NCBI GenBank assembly: GCA_023231475.1
Contig: JALJEE010003013.1
Coordinates: 53,066-73,065 of the forward strand
Direction: 5' to 3'
Length of the DNA stretch: 20,000 nt
DNA from: Seison nebaliae
Lineage: Eukaryota
Made by a program: the position numbers and the translations under genes. The notes under the pieces are model-generated. The model was not told the DNA's origin, did no database searches, and saw only the letters and a list, made by a program, of their open reading frames with translations. Below are positions 63 through 19,214 of this stretch, in pieces. Each line of letters opens with the position of its first letter. Positions within the stretch are counted from its first letter, which is position 1.

Positions 63-600
63 TACACTACTGGACTTAAGTTAGTTTTAGCCGAATTTAG
101 TTTTATTGGACAAAGGAGATGAAACAATTTAAAAACTTAAATGAAACACAATTTAGTATGACATCCAGCCTCCGTGCTCCATTTCAAACAGCCTTGATGG
201 CATTGATAATTGATATACAGTTTTCTATTATATTATTATCCATTTTCTCCCACTTTTCTTCAATTTTAGAGAAGAGCTTGTCGGTGGTTCTAAAGGACTC
301 TAATATTTTTGGAATATTGCCCAAACGTCTTCGATTGGATTTAGATGGGGAGGCCGAGCCGGATGGGGAAAAATTTTCATATTTTCTTCTTCCAAATAGG
401 TTAGACTAGCCCTTGATTTGTGAATGGCCGCATTATCCTGCTGGAAAGTGAATTTATTTTCGTAGAAGGTACGACAATCGTTTACAAAATGTTCGTGCAG
501 CATTTTGATTTAATTTTCGCTGTTCATCATTTCTTTTATTAGGATAATTTTTCATTTATAGCCGCCTCCAATGTCGCCCCAAATCATTAGTGATTTTTTA
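63..600 (-). mobile_element. Decayed, one-end-truncated Tc1-family (DD34E) DNA transposon: transposase C-terminal half plus one putative terminus
   Basis: Minus strand reads SLMIWGDIGGGYK*KIILIKEMMNSEN*IKML...FTFQQDNAAIH...HPARPPHLNPIEDVW, with exactly 34 residues between D (QQDN) and E (NPIE). After a frameshift it continues WEKMDNNIIEN...SMPSRLFEMEHGGWMSY* (stop 153-155), like the Tc1 SMPRR...GG.TKY end. In-frame stops are present. TA at 63-64 followed by CACTACTGGAC resembles a TA target plus TIR start; no partner TIR seen. Confidence 0.88.
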
Positions 601-3086: not shown

Positions 3087-5982
3087 ATGAATTTTTATTA
3101 TTTTCTTATATCAACTCTTGTTATCACGTTGGAGGCTTCTAAGAATAGATTAGGTGTTTATTACTCGTCTAATATTCCTCCTTGTTTTTACTGCGAGGGT
3201 GACACAATTGAAGATCTCAATTTCACATCAACATCCGAGTTGATTTGTAGGGACGAGAGTTCTAATTTAACGGTGAGTTCATTTGTCATTAACCAATACT
3301 TAATTATGTTTGGTAGCTTAGCTATGTATCACCAGAATCAAAGCCCCTTTGCTCCTATGACGAAGTTGAAAATTTTCCATCCCGCTCTGTGGTAAGAGTT
3401 TTCAAATTAACGTTAGTTCATCCTTCTTATTCAGATTTCAACCGAAATCAGATTTGATATGTACCGAAAAAAATTGGATTAAGTTTTTAGATTTTGAATT
3501 TATACTTTAACTGTTCTCAATTCGGATAGTCTTATAATTTATCTTATTTCAGTCATTTCTTCTTTTATTTCAAAATTTAAATTTTGATGAATATTGAAAA
3601 TAAATCTTGTTTGATTGTTTTTAGGAAAGAGCAACCAGTAATTCCCAAATTTACAAAAGATTATGAAGTTTTAGCGATTCTAGATCCGGAAAAATTATTG
3701 AAAACATTCGATGATGTACATTTAGTTATCACTTATACAGTTAAATTTTATAGAATTATTATGATTGATTTTTATTCATCAAATTATACAGCCAAATAAG
3801 AAGCAAGTAAAAATTGTTTCTCCTGAAGATTTTGCTCAATTGTCCGATTCTTCCCCTTCTGAACGGCCGACGATACGAACATTGCTCTCAACCACAACAT
3901 TGGAATCAACCACAGCATTAGAACTAACAACAACATTAGATCCAACAACTAAATTAAACCCAACAACTAAATTGGATACAACGATAAAATTGACTAGAAA
4001 ACGGTCAACAATTGTAACGATGGAGAAAGAGTGGAAAAAAAATAAAATGCCGATTCTCAATAATCCTATAATAAGTAAATCATTAGGTAATTCAAATGAG
4101 AAAAATGTGAAACCTCGATGGAAACATAAGAATGAATCAAGCCTAAACGAAAAAGTGAAAGATGAAGGATTGTCAATAAACGATATCTTGAAGATGGGAA
4201 GATTTAATTTTTCAGCGGAAAATGATATTTTCATACTGATCACCCAAAGTTCAGTTTTGACTTTGAGTAATGCTTATGTGAAAAATACTTGGATCACGAA
4301 TAGCGTTACAAATTTATTTTGTTTTTCAATAATAATGTAAAGTAATATAGATAAGAAATACGATTCGGAAATTAATGTGGAATTTAATAAGAGATCTACC
4401 TAAAAAGCATATCGAGGTGGCTATAGGTACATTAGGACAAAATATTAATAAGAAATTTGAGATCGATATACATTTCAGCATAAGAACGAGAAGATCGAGA
4501 CTATCAAGTCAGTATCCGGATATATTTCATACAAAACATCAGCTCGAAAGATTAATGAATGCAAAAAATTTTACGGATGTATATCAAAGGAGTTTAAGGT
4601 CATCAATAGCTTTAGAGTCGATAGGTTCCATATCCACCTTTCATAAATTTGTTTATTAAAAATATGTTCATTAATTAGCCCTTAAACCAGCTGTGGCGAT
4701 GGCATGGACTGTTAGAATTAAAAATACGGAACATCAAATTTTTCCCATTCATAAATGGTTTATAGTTGGTTGTTGTGCTCTAATGGGACTACTCATGGCA
4801 ATCATGCTAAGTTACCGATATAGGCATCAGATAAGAATGAAATGGCTTAAAACGAGGAAAGAAGTGAAAAAGATGTTTAAACGACGAAAATGGAGTGTAT
4901 TAGCGAAACAATCTGCAAACACTCCAGATATCTCTAAGTTTAATAGACGTACAACTGGTAGCGATCCAAAGAATTTCACAGAAGTTGACGAAGCAGAATT
5001 TGAAGAGTACGGAAAATTCTTCGGACCTTTCGGACATCGAGGTTCTTTTTCATTCAAAATATTTAAGTTTATTCTTATTTTAGTTAATTTCGCACGCAAT
5101 CGATATTATGATATACCTGAAAGTACTGTTGGATCTACAGAACTCTCAGTCTTATATTCGGGATCGGACAGAACTGGTAGAACAAGAGACAGAAATCGAC
5201 TTTCTAGAAACAAGTCCAAAGAATCCATCAAACACAAAGTATCAACATCGAAATCTAAGGCAGATGCTCGTAAATCGAAAATAGAAATGGAACCTAGAAC
5301 GGAAACTCGTAGAGCAAGGTCAGAACCGGTTGTTGAGATAGTAAGACCAAGGGGAGAATCATCGAGACCGAGAGGAGAATCATCTAGACAGAGAGTAGAA
5401 AGCAGACCCGAAACATCCAGATCTAGAGCGGATGCCTCCAGATACAGAGTTGAGTCTTCGAAATCTCGCGAAGATACTCGATCAAGAGTTGAACCTTCAA
5501 AATCGAAAGTAGAAACTTCCAAGTCGAAGTTAGAACAATCAGGATCGAAAGTAGAAAGATCAAAATCCCGGGTTGAAACATCAAAAACAAAAGTAGAACC
5601 TTCCAGATCAAGAGTCGAAGCGGGCAGATCTCGAACGGAACAATCTAAAACAAAACTGGAAGGATCTAAATCGAGAGTTGAAAAATCAAGATCACGAGTC
5701 GAACCGGCTAGATCGAGGACGGAAGGAAGAATTGATCAATCGAGGTCGAGAACGGAGGGAAGAGTAGATCAATCGAGATCGAGGACAGAAGGAAGAGTTG
5801 ATCAGTCGAAATCACGGACAGAATATAGACCTGAAAGAAAAGTGGAACCATCGAAATCAAGAGATATATCACTGAAGGGACAAAACAAAAACAAAGTTAT
5901 TTTCTCCGCCCCACAAAATGAGTCATCCACCCGAATGGATTCGAATAAACAAGGGTCTTCCAGATCTAGAACAAGACATTAA
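3087..5982 (+). CDS. Type I membrane protein: signal peptide, Cys-containing N-terminus, Thr-rich mucin-like stalk, TM helix, long Arg/Ser/Glu/Lys repeat cytoplasmic tail
   Basis: ATG 3087 begins MNFYYFLISTLVITLEA (signal-peptide-like). Introns 3277-3321 (in-frame, optional), 3365-3434, 3483-3624, 3740-3791, 4305-4350, 4625-4678 and 5042-5083 (in-frame, optional) link ORFs 3039, 3584, 3765, 4375 and 4693 without stops. TM WFIVGCCALMGLLMAIMLSY (about 4756-4815) is followed by basic RYRHQIRMKWLKTRK. Confidence 0.72.
3885..3992 (+). repeat. Coding 18-nt tandem repeat (LxxTTx, about 6 units)
   Basis: ttggaatcaaccacagca/ttagaactaacaacaaca/ttagatccaacaactaaa/ttaaacccaacaactaaa/ttggatacaacgataaaa = LESTTA LELTTT LDPTTK LNPTTK LDTTIK. 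Confidence 0.85.
5344..5817 (+). repeat. Coding tandem repeats: 21-nt (7-aa, VExS[KR]S[RK]) array, then three 33-nt (11-aa, TEGRVDQSRSR) units
   Basis: VEPSKSK VETSKSK LEQSGSK VERSKSR VETSKTK VEPSRSR VEAGRSR TEQSKTK LEGSKSR VEKSRSR VEPARSR, then 5719-5817 TEGRIDQSRSR TEGRVDQSRSR TEGRVDQSKSR. Confidence 0.9.
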
Positions 5983-7384: not shown

Positions 7385-10300
7385 ATGAGAAATATCCGTG
7401 GTGATACAATGCGAGGCTTGTCCGTTTTCATTTCAGACATTCGCAATTGTCGAAGTCGTGAAGCTGAAACGAGAAGAATTTTAAGAGAATTGGCAAATAT
7501 ACGATCGAAGTTTCGTGGTGATCGTGCACTGGATGGATATCAAAAAAAGAAATATGTTTGTAAACTAATTTTCATTTTCCTTCATGGATATGACATCGAT
7601 TTCGGTTATAATGAGGCGGTCAATCTTTTGTCTTCCAATAAATATTCAGAGAAGCAAATTGGCTACCTCTTCATTTCGATTTTAGTGAGTGCCGAGAATG
7701 ATTTGATGCGACTAATCATGCAGAATATCAGAAATGATCTTCAATCTCGCAATCCCATATTCGTTCAATTGGCATTGCAATGTATAGCGAATATGAATGA
7801 TAATCCGGAAATCGTTGAGATGGTAGGACAAGAAATACCAAAATTATTAATTTCTGGTGAATCCATTGACTCGATTAAACAAAGTGCAGCATTATGTTTA
7901 TTGAAATTAGTGAGATTACAACCAAATTTGATCGATCACGATTATGCTCCACGAATTATTCATTTATTAAACGATCAACATATCGGTGTAGTAACGGCAG
8001 CAACTGGTCTATTAGTCCAATTGTGTAAACAATTTCCAGAAGAATATAAGGGATGTGTATCATTGACAGTATCTCGTTTGTCACGTATCATTACCACATC
8101 ATATAAAGATTTACAGGATTATACTTATTATTTCATTCCTGCACCGTGGTTAGCTGTGAAATTGTTGCAAATCCTTCAATGTTATCAACCGTCAGAAGAT
8201 GCTGGAATTAGAAGTCGTTTAAATGAATGTTTGGATACGTTGTTGAAGAGAGTGGTGGATAATCCACGAACGAAAAAAACTCAACATTCCAATGCGAAGA
8301 ATGCTGTTCTATTTGAAGCGATTCTTCTTATTATTCATTTGGATAATGAACCGGAATTATTGATTCGTGCTTGTAATCAATTAGGCGTATTTCTCACTAG
8401 TCGAGAAGTGAATTTACGTTATCTGGCATTAGAATATATGTGTCTATTAGCAACTAGTGAGTTCGCTCATGAAGCTGTAAAGAGACATGATGAAACGGTT
8501 TGTGCTGCACTTCGAACAGAGAGAGATATTAGTGTTCGTCAGAAAGCTGTCGATCTTCTTTATGCGATGTGTGATCAAACGAATACGGAACAAATAGTTG
8601 AACAAATGTTATCTTATCTACAAGCGAGTGCAGCCGATTATTCGATCAGAGAAGAAATGGTATTGAAAGTAGCAATACTAGCAGAGAAATATGCCATAAA
8701 TACCAATTGGTATTTAGACGTCATGTTAAGACTGATTAGATTAGCGGGCGATTTTGTAAGTGAAGAAGTTTGGCAACGTGTCATCCATATCGTAACGAAT
8801 CGTCAAGAAGTACAAGGATATGCAGCAAAGACGGTATTCGAAGCATTGCAAGCACCAGCTTGTCATGAAAATATGGTGAAAGTTGGCGGTTATATTTTGG
8901 GAGAATTTGGGAATTATATTGCTGGTGATCCACGTTCATCACCCGAAGTCTTACTACAAATTCTTCATTCTAAATTTCCATTCTGTACTTTGTCCACGCG
9001 CTACATTCTATTAACGGCATATGTGAAATTTGCCAATTTATTTCCGGAAATGAGATCGAAAATTCTGGAAATTCTCCATTTGGATATGAACATCAGATCA
9101 GCTGATATCGAAATGCAGCAACGTGTATCCGAATATCATCAACTGATAAAGACGAGTTCTGATGATGAATTGGCTTACGTATTTGAGAATATGCCGTCAT
9201 ATCCAGAGAGAGAATCATCAATTCTTTTAAAATTGAAACAGAAGAAACAATTGACAAATGTCGATCATCCTTCTAATGGGAATGTCGATAAGAAGAATGA
9301 TGTCGTCTCATCATCAACTGCTCCTTTCAAAAATGATTTGTTAACTAATAAATCGAATACTTTATTAGAGAAAGCTAAAGTAGAATCTATCACTAATAAT
9401 TTATCTGGTCTCTTAATTGATGATTTAAATATGAATGATTCCTCTCAACCATCATCCAACGGAAACATTATCGATTCGTCCATCAACAACAAACCATTAT
9501 CCAACCAACCAATTCAACAACAACAACAACAACAACAACCAACAGCATCAATACCTAATAATAAAATAGAAACAAATTTGAATGATATTTTTGGTCTTGG
9601 ATCTACATCGACTGATGTACCATCATCCATCGTATCATCATCAATTTCGCCATTTGTCAACAATAACGAAATCGATATTCCGTCAAATGATAATTTGAAA
9701 AAAGCAATCATGAGACATTTGGAAGGTTTTGCAATAACCGAAGATAATTGTCGCATCGACATCACATGTGAAACGAAGAAGAATTTCTGTAAATTACAAA
9801 TAACTTTCTCTAATTCTGTTCCATCCTCCTTTGTCATGATTGACTCTTCGGATATCAATGTTCCAAAATTACAATTATTACAAAATAATTTATCATCCTT
9901 CACTGAACCGAAAGCATTAATCTTTACGGGACAATGTTCCCAAGTATTTCGCACTATCGACAATGCTTCATCCTTACCTGTCATCGACTTTAAGTTTTCT
10001 TCCTTTAAACATTTCATTTTTCTTCAATTCATTCTAGATTTGGTGAGAAAACTTACCATATGACATGTCCATTATTTCTCAATTATTTCGCTAGTGATTC
10101 ACCAATGGAAAAATCCGTATTCCAACAACGATGGACTTATTTAGCATCGTTATTCTTTATTTTCTTCTTTTACATAAAATTCAACATTCTCCTCAACTTT
10201 TTTTTCAATTGATTTTTACAATTTTTCATTCTGCATTTTTCTCTTCCTTTTTAGAAATGGGAAAATGACATCTAAAATATTCGAAGTCTCTTGGACATAT

Positions 10301-10653
10301 GAACCATCGATGAATAATATAATCGATTCGAAAGTTTCTTAAGATATTAATCTTTTTTCCTAATTCTTCTGTCATCTAGTTAATCGGAATGGGATTTGCA
10401 ATAATTGGAAAATCAGAACCGAATCAACTAGAATGGAATGGAGGTCTCATCGTCAATGTCAGTAGTCAAATGAAAGGTGTCTTGCACAAACTACGATATA
10501 ATCAAACAACACAAGTTATATTTTGTATTGAGAAATAATTAATTAAATCGGAAAATTTGTAAATAGATGTGGCAAACGGAAATCTTATCAACTCAACAAG
10601 ATGTTGCTGATGAAATTGCTTCATTGGTTGTCGCGAATATTTCTCATAATTAA
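7385..10653 (+). CDS. AP2A: AP-2 complex subunit alpha (alpha-adaptin), 1006 aa; exons 7385-9993, 10038-10148, 10255-10333, 10380-10514, 10567-10653
   Basis: Diagnostic N-terminus [14 protein letters not shown]...ELANIRSKF...[13 protein letters not shown] and trunk motifs [41 protein letters not shown]. Four introns restore the appendage platform domain (FQQRW...SKLIGMG...QMW...*), collinear with human FFQRW...AKIIGFG...QMYRL. Confidence 0.97.
9515..9538 (+). repeat. (CAA)8 polyglutamine tract in the alpha-adaptin hinge
   Basis: Eight perfect CAA units in frame within the low-complexity N/S/Q linker. Confidence 0.95.
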
Positions 10654-10821: not shown

Positions 10822-12201
10822 TTAATCGTTCTCTTTATTAGTGCTACTTTCGGTAAAGCCTGAAAAATTATTTTAATGAAAATTTAATTTCATAATTAAA
10901 CAACTCACTTGTCGGTTTAATATCACCGTCTTCTTCTTCTTCAGAATAAACCGTCGTCAACCTTCTACTGACAATTTCTTTGAAAATTTTCTTTCCCATT
11001 TTTTTCATCAACTTTATATTATTCGGTTCCTTACAACATTTTAATCATGAATTTAAATAAGTTTAAAATAATTTAAAAAATAACTGCTGTGATCAATTCA
11101 TTTTGAACGGAAGAGATTTGCTCTCGAATTTCTTGTAAAGTAAAATAATCTAATATCTCCTCATCTGTTACTGTATCAGATTCAGTTTGAGTTGACAGAT
11201 CATCATCACCAAGTTCTAGATTCTATATTTATTTGAAGTTTTGACGAATTCAGAAAAATTAACATCATTTTGTATCTGTTCGTAGCTATTTATACTTGAT
11301 GCGTAACTGATTTCATGTTCTTTGTCCGTTTGTGACAAATCAACAATTGGTTGAGCTTCTCTTAACGGTTGTAATGGTTCAATAGCGTCGTTCAAATATA
11401 ACTTTTATGAAATAAATAAAGAATTTTTTTATAAGAAGTTATACCTTCTTTATCATCACATTTGTTCTTGGTGGTTTTGAGAAACTATGAGAGATTAATC
11501 CATATTGATCTAAAATACTAAATCGAACTATTATTCCAATCAAGTAAATATTTATAGAAAACCATTCTTTGCAGAATGTAATTACATCTTCTTTGTCAGT
11601 TAGAGTGAACACATCTTCAAGTTTATTAAGAATATTTTGTAATTCTTTCAATAAATCACATAATTCAACCAACTCTAACAAAACAGAAAAATTAGGTACT
11701 TTCAAAAATCTAAAACAAACCTCTTATTTTCGCGATAAGAAAAGTACAAATGGCATGGGCATATTTCATTTTTTCACAGAACTCTTCACTGAAGGGAACA
11801 TCACTAAATTTTTTTTCGTCGAGGAAGTACCAAAATAAGTAAGCACATAATTCCGAATAATAAGAAGCCATATGAATCGGTGTTGTCAATTGACTAACAG
11901 CAGTATTTTCATTTCCATAAGTATGAATCATAGAGAAATAGCTTAAAGAGTGATTGATCTCATTACCATTTCAAATTCTCAAAAAGAAAGTTAACTGAAA
12001 AACTTGAGATATAGACAAGTTTTTTACTTCAGGTGTATCAAAATGTAATGAATTTCCATCTCCGTCAATAACCAATCTTTTTAAACTGGCAAAATGAGTT
12101 TCGGTTAAACTTCCGTAAGTGGAAAGAAATTCATCCTTCCACTGAACTTCAGTAGCTTCGTCAGTTTTTGTCGTTTTATTTGAATCGTCCTGCGATTTCA
12201 T
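10822..12201 (-). CDS. Seven-exon gene of unknown function (helical N-terminal half, acidic C-terminal half)
   Basis: ATG 12201 (MKSQDD...). Introns 11942-11995, 11675-11720, 11402-11444, 11223-11263, 11030-11084 and 10860-10908 (or 10860-10904) join ORFs 11971, 11710, 11439 and short downstream exons (LYLNDAIEP, NLELGDDDL, EPNNIKL) in one frame. Confidence 0.7.
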
Positions 12202-12586: not shown

Positions 12587-13645
12587 ATGGAAATGATATC
12601 GTTTAACACTGACCATGGATACCTGGAAGGATTATTACGTGGTTTCCGTTCCGGTATTCTTACGACGAATGATTACTTAAATTTGACTTCATGTAATTCG
12701 TTGGATGATTTAAAATCGGTTTTACAAGCGAAAGATTATGGTCAATTCCTTGCAAATGAGAGTAGTGTTTTAACAGTCGCCCTAATCGATGAAAGATTGA
12801 GAGATAAATTAGTCATCGAATTTCAACATATTCGAAGTCAGGCAGTTTCGCCATTAAGTAAATTTTTAGATTACATCACATATGGTTATATGATTGATAA
12901 TATTATTCTGCTGATTACGGGAACTCTTCATCATCGATCATTGAATGAATTATTAAATAAATGTCATCCATTGGGTAGTTTCGAACAAATGAAAGCTATT
13001 CAAGTTGCATCAACATCAGCTGAATTATATAATGCGATTATTGTCGATACACCTTTGGCACCATATTTCCAGGATTGTGTTTCAGAACATGATTTGGATG
13101 AATTGAATGTGGAAGTTATTCGGAACACTTTATATCGTGCTTATCTTGAAGACTTTCATGCTTTCTGCAAATCACTTGGTGGTTCTACAGCCAATGTGAT
13201 GTGTGAATTATTGGCATTCGAAGCAGATCGACGTGCCTTCCTTTTAACTATCAATTCATTCGGCACAGAATTAACTAAAGATGATCGTTCAAAACTCTAT
13301 CCGAAATGTGGGAAATTACATCCGGAAGGATTGGCTAAATTGGCGAATGCTGACGATTATGAACAAGTTCATCGTATAGCTGAAATGTATGATGATTATC
13401 GGAAAATTTTCGATGAAGCAGATACTGGACTTACTGGTCATTCGGGAGAGAGAAGTGTTGAAGATCGTTTCTTCGAGAAGGAAGTTCATCTCAATAAACT
13501 CTCTTTTCTCCAACAATTTCATTTCGGCATATTTTACAGTTATGTCAAATTGAGAGAGCAGGAATGTCGGAATATCATTTGGATAGCGGAATGTGTGGCT
13601 CAACAACATCGTACTAAAATCGATGCATATATTCCAACATTCTAA
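12587..13645 (+). CDS. ATP6V0D1: V-type proton ATPase V0 subunit d, 352 aa, intronless
   Basis: Full-length match to family motifs [82 protein letters not shown]. Confidence 0.98.
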
Positions 13646-13764: not shown

Positions 13765-13900
13765 CTAGTCTCTAATTCAATTTCTATTTATTTCCAAAAC
13801 AAATTTTAATAATCGTCTTTCAAACATTTTATTTTACATTATCTATTCACTATTCACTATTCAGATTAATTGATTCATTTCTTTCAATAAGAAATGATAA

Positions 13901-15728
13901 TTACAATGGCATATTCGAATGTTTCTTGTTTGGTAGTTTCTCTTCTTTTCTTATTAAACGTTCCAATTCATTACACAATCGAAATCTTGTCATTTTTGGT
14001 TGAATGATATCGTCAGTATATCCTCTTGTTGCTGCCGGAAATGGATTAGCAAATTTCTCGATATATTCCGCTTCATTCTTCTCTACATCTTTTCCACGAA
14101 AAATAATTTTAATGGCTCCCTAAATACAAGTTATTTATTAAAATATTAAGTTGAATTAGAAATAACTTGAGCTCCCATTACAGCCACTTCTGCTGATGGC
14201 CATGCAAGATTAACATCAGCTAATAAATGTTTCGAACTCATAACATCGTATGCTCCTCCATATGCCTTTCGAGTAATAACTGTCATCTAAATGTAACTGT
14301 TATATAATTTAGTTAAATGAGATTTAGAGAAAACTTTTGGGACAGTCGCTTCAGCAAAAGCATAAAGTAATTTTGCACCATTTCTAATAATTCCTCCATA
14401 TTCTTGTGCAGTTCCAGGTAAGAATCCTGGAACATCAACTAATGTTAATAAAGGAATATTGAATGAATCACAAAAGCGGACAAATCTTGCTGCTTTCACT
14501 GACGCATTTATATCAAGACAACCAGCAGCAACTTTCGGTTGATTAGCTACTACTCCGACGGTATAACCATTTAATCTGGTGAAACCGATGATAATGTTTT
14601 TCGCATATTCAGGCATCAATTCAAAAAATTGTCTATTATCTCCTAATTCCAAAATGATTTCTTTCATATCATATGCTTGTGATGAGTCTAAAGGAATCAT
14701 GGAATCTAACGATTTCACTATTCTATCTTTCGGATCATTATTCTTTTGTTTCATATAATCATTCTTTCGATTCGACAATGGTAAATAATTAAAGAAAATT
14801 CTTAATTGATGAAGAGCGTCAACATCATTCTCGAAAGAATTGGTAGCACATCCCGATATTTTCGTATGAGTATCAGCTCCACCCAATTCTTCTTGTGTCA
14901 CTTTCTCACCAGTCACCGATTCCACTACATCAGGTCCAGTAATAAAAAGAAAAGATGAGTCCTTTGAACATTAAATTTCATTTTGAATATTTTAAAAATT
15001 TCAACTTTTATCATAAATGTAAAATCAGTGAGAGCAGGAGAATACACCGCTCCACCAGCACATGGTCCCATAATAATAGAAAGTTGTGGAATAACACCAG
15101 AAAATCGAGCATTTCTCTATTATGAGAGGAGAGTTTATTGAAAAGTTTAAAAGAAGAAAAATCCAAACTAGAAAAATATCAGCGTAACCGGCTAATGAAT
15201 CGACACCTTCTTGTATTCGAGCACCACCAGAATCATTAATTCCAATCAATGGAATTCCACTTTTGGCAGCATAATCCATTATTTTACATATTTTTGCAGC
15301 ATGTACTTTCGAGAGACTACCTCCGAATACAGTGAAATCTTGACTGAATAAAGCTACTGGACGACCAAATATATTTCCATAACCAGTGACCACACTATCT
15401 GAAGGAAACTTAAAAGAAATTCATTCGAAGAAATTTCTTTAAGGAATTTAAGAACTTTTTGTTTCTCTAATCCAAAATGAGTGCAATCATGTTCTACAAA
15501 CATATCCGTTTCGGTGAAAGAATTTCTGTCTAACAACAACGATATTCTCTCTCGAGCTGACAATTTTCCCTTTTCATGCTGCTTGTTAATTCGATGTTGT
15601 CCACCACCTAATTGTGCCTTCTCTCGACGTTCATTAATCTTCGTTCTGACATTCAACGAATTTTGAGCGGCAGCTGATATAGTTGAAGTACGAACGAAAG
15701 ATTTATTAAAAATCAATTTTGATAACAT
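13901..15728 (-). CDS. PCCB: Propionyl-CoA carboxylase beta chain, mitochondrial, 529 aa; exons 15728-15456, 15408-15169, 15116-15006, 14961-14335, 14286-14167, 14119-13901
   Basis: Motifs [85 protein letters not shown]. Five phase-0 GT-AG introns (47, 52, 44, 48, 47 nt) give a collinear protein. The N-terminus resembles a mitochondrial presequence. Confidence 0.98.
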
Positions 15729-15901: not shown

Positions 15902-18900
15902 TCATTCATCGCCATTGAACTTTCCGATAGTTTTATTCTTAACCAATTGATAATACTCATAAAATTTCATTTTTTCTGTCACATGGTTAATTTTTTCAAA
16001 TAGCAAATGATTCTTATTTTTTGCATCAGTCGGGAAGAGAAATAATGAATAAAACCCAGAACTTTTGAATGCAAACTGATTACGAGTGGTGGGACGGTAG
16101 ACAATGGAGAATATCATCTGAAAAATAAAATACTAATTTTAACAAGAATTTTTTAAATTGGATAAGTTAAACAATACCATTGTCTGGTTTTCATATGAAT
16201 TAATTTATTTTTCGATGTTCTGCTGTTCGACTAACCAGAAAAGAAGAAAAACGATGTTTTACAAGTCAGAAGATTAGGTTTTTGATTTTAACTGATTAAA
16301 TTTCGTACGGAAGCTTTGTACGATTAATGTTCGGTGGTTGTCGTATGGAAATTCGTTACCTACACTGAGTGCAAACTAGGTTGTGCACCGAGAGCAGCGC
16401 AATTGGCACGAGTATTCTGATCGATTTTCTTGAATGGAAATCCATCCATATAGGAAGAGATATTTGAACATTATCGATTCGGTGCAAAATTTGATCTCAC
16501 AGAGCCTACTTTCGTACAGTGCGAAACCGAAAATTCTCCAATCAAATTTTTCTGCAGTTATTACTCTTTAAGTTCTCGTGAATCGTATGGTGACGCGTCT
16601 TCGATGCTGTCAAATTTCTCTATTGATTCTTATATACTGAAGAATCAGTTGGTATCTGGTAAGAATCTCATTATCAATAACTCCTCCAAAGAGTTATCTT
16701 CTTTTCTATATAATTTGCTCCGTGGGGATTTTATTTATTAATAAAAAAAAATTAAAAAAATTAGTGTCAGAAGTAACAAATTACGTCAGCCTGAACCAAT
16801 CGAGTTTCTATTAAAATAAGATAAGATAATTTAACGAAAACCACATAAAATAAAAACCTTCATTTGTGGGAATTTCGGAAAATGAAGTCATTGTCTGGTT
16901 GATCCAATTACTGTAATCCATTGTATTAGAGAAACTTTCATCATGTAGTTCTTTTTCATTACCACTTTCCAAATAGAATTCAACTCTCTTTTTCTTATTT
17001 TTGTCGAAGACGTGAAACATAACTGATCGGTTTCTAAACAAATGGAATTAAACAAAATAATGGGAAAAGGAAACTTCGCTTGTTCCGATGACGATTTCAT
17101 CGATCCTTTCATTAAATACTCTTCTTGAAAAATTGCATCTTTCTGTTGAATGAGAGAAATTTTTGCTGAATGTAAAGTAGTAGCAATTTGTTTCTTTAAA
17201 TCTGGTGAAATTTCAGATTGGTCGATCAATGACATAATTTTCAAATCGATCATTGTTCTTGTGAGAATATTAATTTGTCGAATAATTTTTATCATGTTGT
17301 TGGAATGTTTATGACCGTGTATTTTCGCCAACGACTGCTCATCATATAAACCAACTGAGGAAAAATAATTGTCGATAGATAAATATTTATCTGTCTTCTT
17401 TGTATCTTCAAGCAATTGTTGAAAATTATATTTTAATAAATTTTGTAGGTTTTTTCCCGTTAATCTCATCTGGATCTTCGTTGCTTCCTTAGTCATATTC
17501 AGAACAAATAATTCCAATGTTAATGTAATGGACAAAGTCAATGAAATTGTGTTACTATATTTGTATTCGTCGAGAATGAGGACCCAATATTTCACTGGAT
17601 GATGTGTTAATAATTCGTCTAGGAACTGTTTGGCAAATCCTTTCTTATTTCCAGTGTCAATCAATTGGTCTAAAATCCATTCAATTGTTAAATTGATGAG
17701 TGGTGGGTGATGAATCTCTAAAAATAGGATAATTTGACGATCTGAACATTTTGAAAGGAAGAATATGAACTTTTCATAATTTCACATATTCTCAAAACAA
17801 TCTCATCGGAATTTAAGGGAATTTTCAAAAATTCTAATAATGAAATGAATAACAATCAACATTTAAATTTCATCAACCTTTTGTTATATCATCGATATTA
17901 GTGAGAGGAGCATTTTCAACCAAATCTTTTGGAAGTCCAAATAAAATTTTGAATAAATTCTAGTGAGAACAAATTAATTTATTTATATCGTATATTTATA
18001 TTAATTATACAACTATTATAAACCTGTACGTATTTCCCATCGGAATCATATCGATAATTATTGTAATCATTCAAAAATAATAAATTCCCCAAATTTATTT
18101 TTATATCATAAAATATTTCATCCGAATATTTTCCATCAAATAAATTGTGAGTTAATAACTCCAAGTTCTCTTCCACTTTATCTTGATAGAAAATTTTGTA
18201 ATGTGAGTCCAGTTCAATTTTTCTAATGAGAAAATTTTCTTTAATTCCCGTCGTCCAACCTTTCTAAAATAAGTGTTATGATATTAATAGAAATAATATG
18301 AATAAACGAACATGTATTTGAAGAAATTTAATTTTGAGAGTTTTTGCAAATGAATTGAAAATATCGAAATAATTCGAACTTGAAGGCACTAAATATAATA
18401 AAAGAAGTTAAATAATTTTATTTAAAAAATTTACCGTTCATAAATAATCTTACCGAATTCTCCCATTTCGCCTCTCCGTCTTTGTTTTGGAAAAATTTGG
18501 TTATATTCAAAAATTTCTTCAAAAAGAGAATGATTTTAAACAAAATATTTTTATAAAATTTCGAACCTCGTTTGTTGACCGATTCATGGAAAGAAATAAC
18601 ATGGAAAAACCACCATATCGGGCCGATAAATTATTAAAAATTTTTTTCCCATTTGCTGTAACAGCAAATTCTACAATGTCAGAAATTATCGATCTATTTT
18701 ACGCCAAAAACAATTATGGGAAGAAAAATAAAAATTATTAATAAAAAAGATGAAATTATTAAAGATCGGAGAAATAACGGAATAAATATTGGATTAATTG
18801 GATCTTCGTTATCATTTATTGGTTGATCTGAAATATTCTCCGTAGTCTGAGGAGGAACTTGATTTGCATAAGTCTAAAGAAATTATTAAAAGAAATAGAT

Positions 18901-19214
18901 TGTAAAATTAAAACTATCAAAGGCGATCCCTTTAATTCCGTAACTGATTGATTGACATATTCAATTTCAATTGAATCTTCAGATAAATCGTTTTGTAGAA
19001 AACGTTGTTCATTCTTCAAATCATTCGTTTTGGAAAAGAGGAATTGATTTCCCTTCAAATATTTAACCATAATCTTTGTTGAATGACTGAATTTTTCAGG
19101 ATTTATGTTATCTCTCACAAAAATATTTTCATTAGAATAATTGAATTTGATAAAGGAAAGATTATTTACCATTAATTCTTGAAGATTCTTAACGACATCG
19201 TCTGGGAATTTCAT
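15902..19214 (-). CDS. Large multi-exon gene of unknown function; both ends uncertain
   Basis: Introns 18874-18914, 18694-18778, 18517-18566, 18389-18453, 18264-18307, 17960-18023, 17834-17877, 17718-17770, 17034-17074 and 16808-16857 join ORFs 18816, 17979, 16888 and 16811 into one stop-free frame. A longer intron (about 16231-16784) holds a retroelement. Exons below 16230 and above 19214 are not resolved. Confidence 0.65.
16290..16762 (+). mobile_element. Second, decayed 3' fragment of the same non-LTR retrotransposon family, antisense within an intron
   Basis: Stop-free frame 16454-16741 encodes QCETENSPIKFFCSYYSLSSRESYGDASSMLSNFSIDSYI, aligning with QCEKFNTPLRYFCSYYNLSYPSSLSDARGMLHNFKLDEYI of ORF 6301-6795. 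Upstream frameshifted pieces YGSFVRLMFG and KRYLNI resemble YNRCIRILLG and DRYLSL. Ends in AATAAAAAAAAATTAAAAAAA. Confidence 0.75.

Follow-up and report, generated by a model that had tools for sequence, protein, structure and literature searches.

Animal 5' splice sites, referred to as donors in the following, are thought to need base pairing either on the exon side (G at position -1) or on the intron side (a purine at +3 and G at +5); opposite the base at +3 are position 6 of U1 and one G of the U6 box. Donors pair with the 5' end of U1 and then with loop 1 of U5 and the ACAGA box of U6, with AG//GU and //GURAG as classes; in animals and plants, these are AG//GUNNN sites, which belong to U5 loop 1, and NN//GURAG sites, which belong to the U6 ACAGA box (PMC11732430). 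The only lineage with U at +3 that we found in print is Entamoeba, where GUUUGU(U) donors have co-evolved with a U1 that contains ACAAAC for ACUUAC (bioRxiv 10.1101/2022.06.08.495308); the motif is strict, comprises six to seven letters including G at +5, and occurs at low intron density. In Saccharomycotina, a switch from A to U at +4 is tied to the loss of METTL16 and SNRNP27K (PMC10581693); positions +3 and +5 vary little, and METTL16 loss goes with U at +4, not with U at +3. Among animals, Fritillaria borealis has non-canonical introns on a genome scale, and reduced m6A of U6 has been proposed as part of the cause (PMC13326754). In Fritillaria even the GT-AG rule is abandoned, whereas U1 and METTL16 are retained.

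Seison nebaliae is a tiny marine animal belonging to the Seisonidea within the Syndermata. In the window, which is the whole stretch of 20,000 nucleotides analysed here, the gene of the β subunit of propionyl-CoA carboxylase (PCCB) was the starting point. A sequence-only reading had assigned five minus-strand introns to it, all with A//GTT donors; coordinates and letters were right, and the observation is confirmed for these five predicted introns. Table 1 lists them together with the introns of two further genes, which encode AP-2 alpha adaptin (AP2A) and an orphan protein.

Table 1. Predicted genes and introns of the window (// marks the exon-intron border)
Feature	Position	Strand	Length	Phase	Splice sites	Remarks
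PCCB (propionyl-CoA carboxylase beta) gene	13901..15728	-	529 aa			6 exons
PCCB intron 1	15409..15455	-	47 nt	0	AAA//GTTCTT...AAG	vertebrate border after residue 101
PCCB intron 2	15117..15168	-	52 nt	0	CTA//GTTTGG...TAG	vertebrate border after residue 181
PCCB intron 3	14962..15005	-	44 nt	0	AAA//GTTGAA...AAG	vertebrate border after residue 218
PCCB intron 4	14287..14334	-	48 nt	0	AAA//GTTTTC...TAG	off vertebrate border (426 vs 433)
PCCB intron 5	14120..14166	-	47 nt	0	CAA//GTTATT...TAG	vertebrate border after residue 466
AP2A (AP-2 alpha adaptin) gene	7385..10653	+	1006 aa			four introns, all in last fifth
AP2A intron 1	9994..10037	+	44 nt	2	TAA//GTTTTC	thin score margin, only 5 units
AP2A intron 2	10149..10254	+	106 nt	2	ATC//GTTATT	ancestral position
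AP2A intron 3	10334..10379	+	46 nt	0	AAA//GTTTCT	
AP2A intron 4	10515..10566	+	52 nt	0	CAA//GTTATA	ancestral position
Orphan gene, model P0361	16767..19070	-	593 aa			ten introns, 41-85 nt; no homologue fixes them

Removal of the five PCCB introns gives a product of 529 residues which does not differ from P0121, a public record of S. nebaliae, and matches the Pfam family Carboxyl_trans (1e-186). When compared with 14 homologues, the GT-AG pairs of Table 1 were top-scoring, with margins of 17 to 68 score units; the number of in-frame, stop-free GT/GC-AG alternatives per intron was 3, 4, 4, 17, and 21. At the junctions, the spliced protein aligns with its homologues without gaps, and retention of any single intron leads to a premature stop. 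A donor-neutral spliced aligner, which was written for this analysis and combines a flat intron penalty with the omission of any term for +3 or -1, recovered the identical five introns with all three references. The introns are short (44-52 nt) and have a GC content of 15-27%; all five are in phase 0. One DNA contig corresponds to positions 13890-15259, i.e. to introns 2-5, without a single difference; the window itself may stem from this contig.

The spliced AP2A product equals the S. nebaliae record P0241 and contains the Pfam domains Adaptin_N and Alpha_adaptin_C. Its four introns were recovered by the donor-neutral aligner with each of the three references; in the divergent hinge of the protein, two of these references led to one or two false calls. 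The donors of the orphan gene are located at 18914, 18778, 18566, 18434, 18311, 18023, 17877, 17770, 17074, and 16857; one is GTA, and G occupies -1 in five of the ten. The orphan protein (window positions 16767-19214, about 593-640 residues) belongs to no Pfam family and has no relative among 1.84 billion representatives. A donor-neutral gene model, which contains neither +3 nor -1 terms and was trained only on three conserved genes, the orphan gene not being one of them, found the same ten introns plus one doubtful extra intron and an earlier start. This removes the circularity of taking the orphan introns from the public model. PCCB and AP2A were in the training set, and their recovery by the gene model is therefore no test. 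Thus, PCCB does not stand alone: within the same window, GTT opens all four AP2A introns and nine of the ten orphan introns.

Donor statistics were computed for the 19 predicted introns of these three genes (PCCB 5, AP2A 4, orphan gene 10), all from one window. T is found at +3 in 18 of them and in nine of the nine homology-fixed introns of PCCB and AP2A. Given the intron T content of 0.51, the p-value is 5e-5 for 18/19 and 0.002 for 9/9; for the five PCCB introns it is 0.034, which is modest alone. The enrichment is a spike, as the T fraction is 0.95 at +3 and at background (0.42-0.58) from +4 to +8. A purine at +3, the standard for animal donors, was found only once. At -1, the counts of A/G/C/T are 11/5/2/1; A at +4 occurs in 5/19, G at +5 in 3/19, and T at +6 in 11/19 introns, and the positions -1, +4, +5, and +6 exhibit no preference beyond composition. 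Twelve of the 19 donors possess neither G at -1 nor G at +5. The exon end is rich in A, with A at -2 in 14/19 and A or C at -3 in 15/19 cases. C was never observed among the 18 pyrimidines at +3, whereas about four would be expected from the contents of C (0.13) and T (0.51) if either base were tolerated (p ~0.02, calculated by hand). Intron lengths range from 41 to 106 nt (median 48), and the bodies consist of 51% T and 5% G. All 19 introns are GT-AG by construction; the last three letters are TAG in 16 cases and AAG otherwise.

The T at +3 and the missing G at +5, which the sequence-only reading had noted for PCCB, are real in this gene and extend to the others. Its motif A//GTT did not hold with respect to the A. 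With Lys, Leu, Lys, Lys, and Gln encoded at the junctions and codon usage taken from four genes, the probability of five A at -1 is 0.20. This result and the five G at -1 in the orphan gene rule out A at -1 as a signal. At two-fold A/G sites, G was chosen at -1 in 2/8 cases compared to an expected fraction of 0.20. As codon usage explains the A, the preference for G at -1 has been lost and not replaced by one for A. The remaining donor signal would consequently be U at +3, with no preference at -1, +4, and +5.

Several other readings of the donors were tried and rejected. A U-rich run of the TIA1 type downstream of the donor is not seen in the 19 introns, as T is at background from +4 to +8. 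If the register were shifted, with GTT followed by the consensus one base further on, G at +6 and A at +5 would be frequent; they were found in 1/19 and 5/19 introns, and GTTNAG in 0/19. U12-type introns were rejected on the basis of 0/19 GTATCC or ATATCC donors and of the lack of a fixed branch motif; ZMAT5 is listed as missing in Seison and both acanthocephalans (PMC12256650 supplement). In the search for branch points, matches to YTRAY occurred at scattered distances, and six of the 19 introns contain none.

The unvalidated models of four further genes, together with an additional site, contribute GTT in 14 of 24 cases according to a hand count; for comparison, T follows any GT in 41%. The genome-wide share of GTT may thus be below 95%. 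Plausible GTA donors at 11444 (-), 18434 (-), and 3392 (+) have G at -1, as though a mismatch of A at +3 had to be compensated. G at -1 is lacking from other predicted GTA sites, and only 18434 belongs to a supported model. Some GTA donors, namely 11444 and 18434, both with G at -1, look real.

Two comparisons bear on the age of the introns. Among 118 homologues of PCCB, isoforms with skipped exons reveal vertebrate exon borders. Those after residues 181, 218, and 465/466 coincide with Seison introns 2, 3, and 5; the border after 100/101, which corresponds to intron 1, rests on one isoform record. Intron 4 (426) is seven codons away from the vertebrate border 432/433 and is either new or may have slid. 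The claim of the sequence-only reading that four positions are shared with the human gene stands for the positions, four of the five being at vertebrate borders; the residues given for the fifth junction do not, as it reads AQ//GA in Seison and AK//GA in vertebrates. For AP2A, a metagenome scan with the Brachionus protein gave 66 loci, from which the controls were drawn. At least one intron passing the flank quality filter was present in 32 of them and in 34 none; 9 near-duplicates were dropped and 23 loci kept. Control donors were placed by the same donor-neutral aligner as those of Seison. AP2A introns 2 and 4 are each common to 12 of 19 control loci, and the control donors at these positions are GTA or GTG in 12/12 and 11/12 cases, respectively (23/24 together). 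Altogether, at least six of the nine homology-fixed introns occupy ancestral positions, and the Seison donors were thus rewritten on old introns. This agrees with the idea of old introns with rewritten donors that had been put forward for PCCB.

Four control loci form a long-stemmed clade, the sister group of the Brachionus clade with a support of 0.993; we infer that they are bdelloid-like, the tree containing no named bdelloid. Among their donors, T occupies +3 in 7/34, A at +3 in 26/34, G at -1 in 7/34, and G at +5 in 22/34 cases; for the other animal donors, T at +3 was found in 8/127 and G at +5 in 88/127. Neither G at -1 nor G at +5 is present in 8/34 bdelloid-like and 5/127 other donors. 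The difference between the homology-fixed Seison introns (9/9 with T at +3) and the bdelloid-like ones (7/34) has a Fisher p-value of 2e-5, introns being treated as independent. The bdelloid-like introns have a T content of 0.48 and are as AT-rich as those of Seison. Two control loci, L016 and L037, have a raised proportion of T at +3 (4/7 and 2/5), mostly as GTTTGT with G at +5 kept.

A second sequence was found on PCCB. Contigs of low depth, with about 85% identity to the window, align in four runs (X1-X4) and have the exon-intron layout of the window. None of these runs contains a splice joint, which speaks neither for nor against splicing. GTT is present at all four covered introns (2, 3, 4, and 5), as read from the alignment or from loose ends of single contigs with a depth of 2-4; the donor of intron 1 is not covered. 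In introns 2, 3, and 5, the first visible difference from the window is at +4, whereas intron 4 first differs at +7. Intron 5 has the same length in both sequences, although its body is unalignable. Two lineages of S. nebaliae have been described (PMC8351084), and these contigs presumably represent one of them.

Taken as a whole, these introns likely belong to the ordinary spliceosomal U2 type, with a donor code that has been rewritten throughout the genome of Seison. Like those of Entamoeba, they are GT-AG introns of the U2 type with U instead of a purine at +3, and in both cases existing introns would have been transformed. Unlike in Entamoeba, only U at +3 is fixed: GTTTGT was found in 0/19 introns and G at +5 in 3/19, and a gene may contain up to ten introns. 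With Saccharomycotina, Seison shares the loss of the preference for A at +4 (5/19) and the listed absence of METTL16; it differs in that +3 is changed, +4 and +5 are free, and SNRNP27 is listed as complete. Fritillaria resembles Seison in being an animal that departs from the standard donor, whereas GT-AG is retained in 19/19 Seison introns. The A-rich exon end (A at -2 in 14/19, A or C at -3 in 15/19) resembles the U5-leaning AG//GUNNN class. However, most Seison donors fit neither class, as 12/19 are devoid of both G at -1 and G at +5 and 18/19 of a purine at +3.

A search of the full-text literature, which included PMC10125929, PMC7310846, PMC3464624, and PMC1557818, subscription papers and bioRxiv supplements excepted, retrieved no report of GTT donors in Seison or any other animal. 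In the S. nebaliae genome paper (PMC8351084), no statement on GTT donors was found in the text and the two supplements searched. As far as searched, the GTT donor code is new for animals. We consider GTT very probably the dominant donor throughout the Seison genome; the variant U2-type donor is real and probably extends over the genome.

Judging from the donors, recognition of the beginning of introns by the splicing machinery is likely altered in Seison. As C never occurs at +3 (0/18), A fits better than G as the partner of this base, which favours a changed position 6 of U1, as in Entamoeba, or a changed base of U6. In the mechanism we propose, the snRNA base facing +3 would have become A, either at U1 position 6 or, less likely, within the ACAGA box of U6, where it would replace the G. 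As three informative letters are all that is left, sites would be chosen mainly by intron definition, i.e. by a stretch of about 45-55 nt, rich in AU and poor in G, between GUU and UAG. Of 100 GTT within exons, no more than 4 mark the start of an intron-like window (41-64 nt, AT-rich, G-poor, ending in AG); therefore composition and length could supply the missing information. Pairing of U5 loop 1 with the A-rich exon end (A at -2 in 14/19) would assist, and a loss of U6 m6A through loss of METTL16 would fit the lost preference for A at +4.

That an snRNA change to A caused the GTT donors has, in our estimate, somewhat less than an even chance. The complete scenario, in which a changed U1 or U6 reads the three-letter signal GUU, pairing at -1, +4, and +5 was given up along with METTL16, and old introns were rewritten in their thousands in the first animal of this kind, is put forward more tentatively. 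A qualitative pairing argument against an snRNA change is that a single change of U1 would still leave only about three contiguous pairs. Moreover, U1 is unchanged in most lineages with altered donors, among them Giardia, Trichomonas, Thecamonas, and Micromonas (bioRxiv 2022.06.08.495308), and also in Saccharomycotina (PMC10581693), which counts against an snRNA change. An Rfam search of the 20-kb window gave 0 matches, snRNAs included.

The precedents of an unchanged U1 favour an alternative which leaves the snRNAs as they are: a protein (a diverged U1C or LUC7, a factor of the TIA1/Nam8 type, or the PRP8 pocket) or a changed snRNA modification would read GUU, with U1 pairing relaxed and m6A of U6 lost. 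We regard it as a possibility that deserves attention without being probable. In Fritillaria, too, U1 is standard, and m6A of U1 and U6 is changed instead; the neutrality of -1, +4, +5, and +6 is what one would expect if U1 pairing mattered little. A TIA1-type factor is at odds with the spike of T at +3 and the background level immediately downstream. As to the proteins, a BUSCO table covers 25 syndermatan genomes (PMC12256650 supplement); among its rows listed, METTL16, SPF45, and LSm2 are the splicing-related entries that are 'Missing' only in Seison. SNRNP40 is listed as missing in Seison and one bdelloid; SNRNP27, PRPF8, SF3B1, SF3B3, SF3A3, U2A', SmD1, SmD2, and SmG are listed as complete in Seison (same supplement). 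The listing of METTL16, SPF45, and SNRNP40 as missing would suit a protein or modification change. However, 3/35 splicing-related rows among those listed are 'Missing' in Seison only, compared to a base rate of 76/954 (PMC12256650 supplement). As this share equals the base rate, the loss of METTL16 is a weak lead only, and a true loss of LSm2 is unlikely. Among the rows searched in this supplement, there is none for a U1 snRNP protein or LUC7.

The preferred reading of a changed snRNA is compatible with a further possibility, namely that a GTT-leaning code is common to acanthocephalans or graded from bdelloids, such that Seison is the extreme of a syndermatan trend. In the bdelloid-like loci, T at +3 is raised (7/34, with 4/7 in L016) and G at -1 is low (7/34); these donors nevertheless retain G at +5 (22/34) and A at +3 (26/34), and we deem such a trend rather unlikely.

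It is improbable that no active preference exists and that the donors decayed to a bare GT in an AT-rich genome, with T at +3 reflecting compositional drift and a small sample. The neutral appearance of -1, +4, +5, and +6, the modest p-value of PCCB alone, and the 14/24 GTT in the unvalidated models would agree with drift. Against it, T at +3 exceeds the T content of 0.51 in the 19 introns (p 5e-5) as well as in the homology-fixed ones (p 0.002), the positions adjoining +3 stay near 0.5 T, the bdelloid-like introns, although just as rich in AT (T 0.48), carry T at +3 in only 7/34 cases, and the second sequence keeps GTT and yet diverges right after it. Misplaced junctions or a lack of splicing, due to an assembly error or a pseudogene, are scarcely credible in view of the unique best GT-AG pair per site, the gap-free alignment of the spliced protein, the stops caused by intron retention, the same layout in the second sequence, and the ancestral positions.

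An intron-bearing animal which lacks both kinds of pairing and in which U at +3 became fixed on ancestral introns constitutes a natural experiment. It bears on the question whether the 5' splice site is selected by U1, U5, U6, or proteins, and on the co-evolution of splice signals and the spliceosome. In addition, gene finders and BUSCO runs that rely on conventional donor models may overlook genes of Seison; the numbers of lost genes published for this key taxon would then be too high.

Further observations concern the remainder of the window. The 5' part of AP2A (2.6 kb, 7385-9993) is devoid of all ten intron positions which are common to at least four control loci; the gene keeps four introns near its 3' end, which is the reverse of the usual 3'-biased loss. 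The gene of V-ATPase subunit d has none: its frame 12587-13645 is intronless, spans the Pfam model to its end, and its first 299 residues are identical to a public Seison nebaliae record. The public model P0001 excises an intron of 56 nt (13484-13539 (+), GAA//GTTCAT...CAG) and then ends in another frame; this would be either a wrong call by a gene finder that had learned GTT donors or a cryptic exonic intron. The protein encoded at 4699-5982 (+) is without a Pfam match and has a predicted hydrophobic stretch near its start and a long repeat region rich in Ser, Arg, and Glu; its single predicted intron begins with GAG//GTT at 5042. Finally, a fragment of a Tc1/mariner-like transposase (DDE_3, E 4e-8) is located at 300-509 (-).
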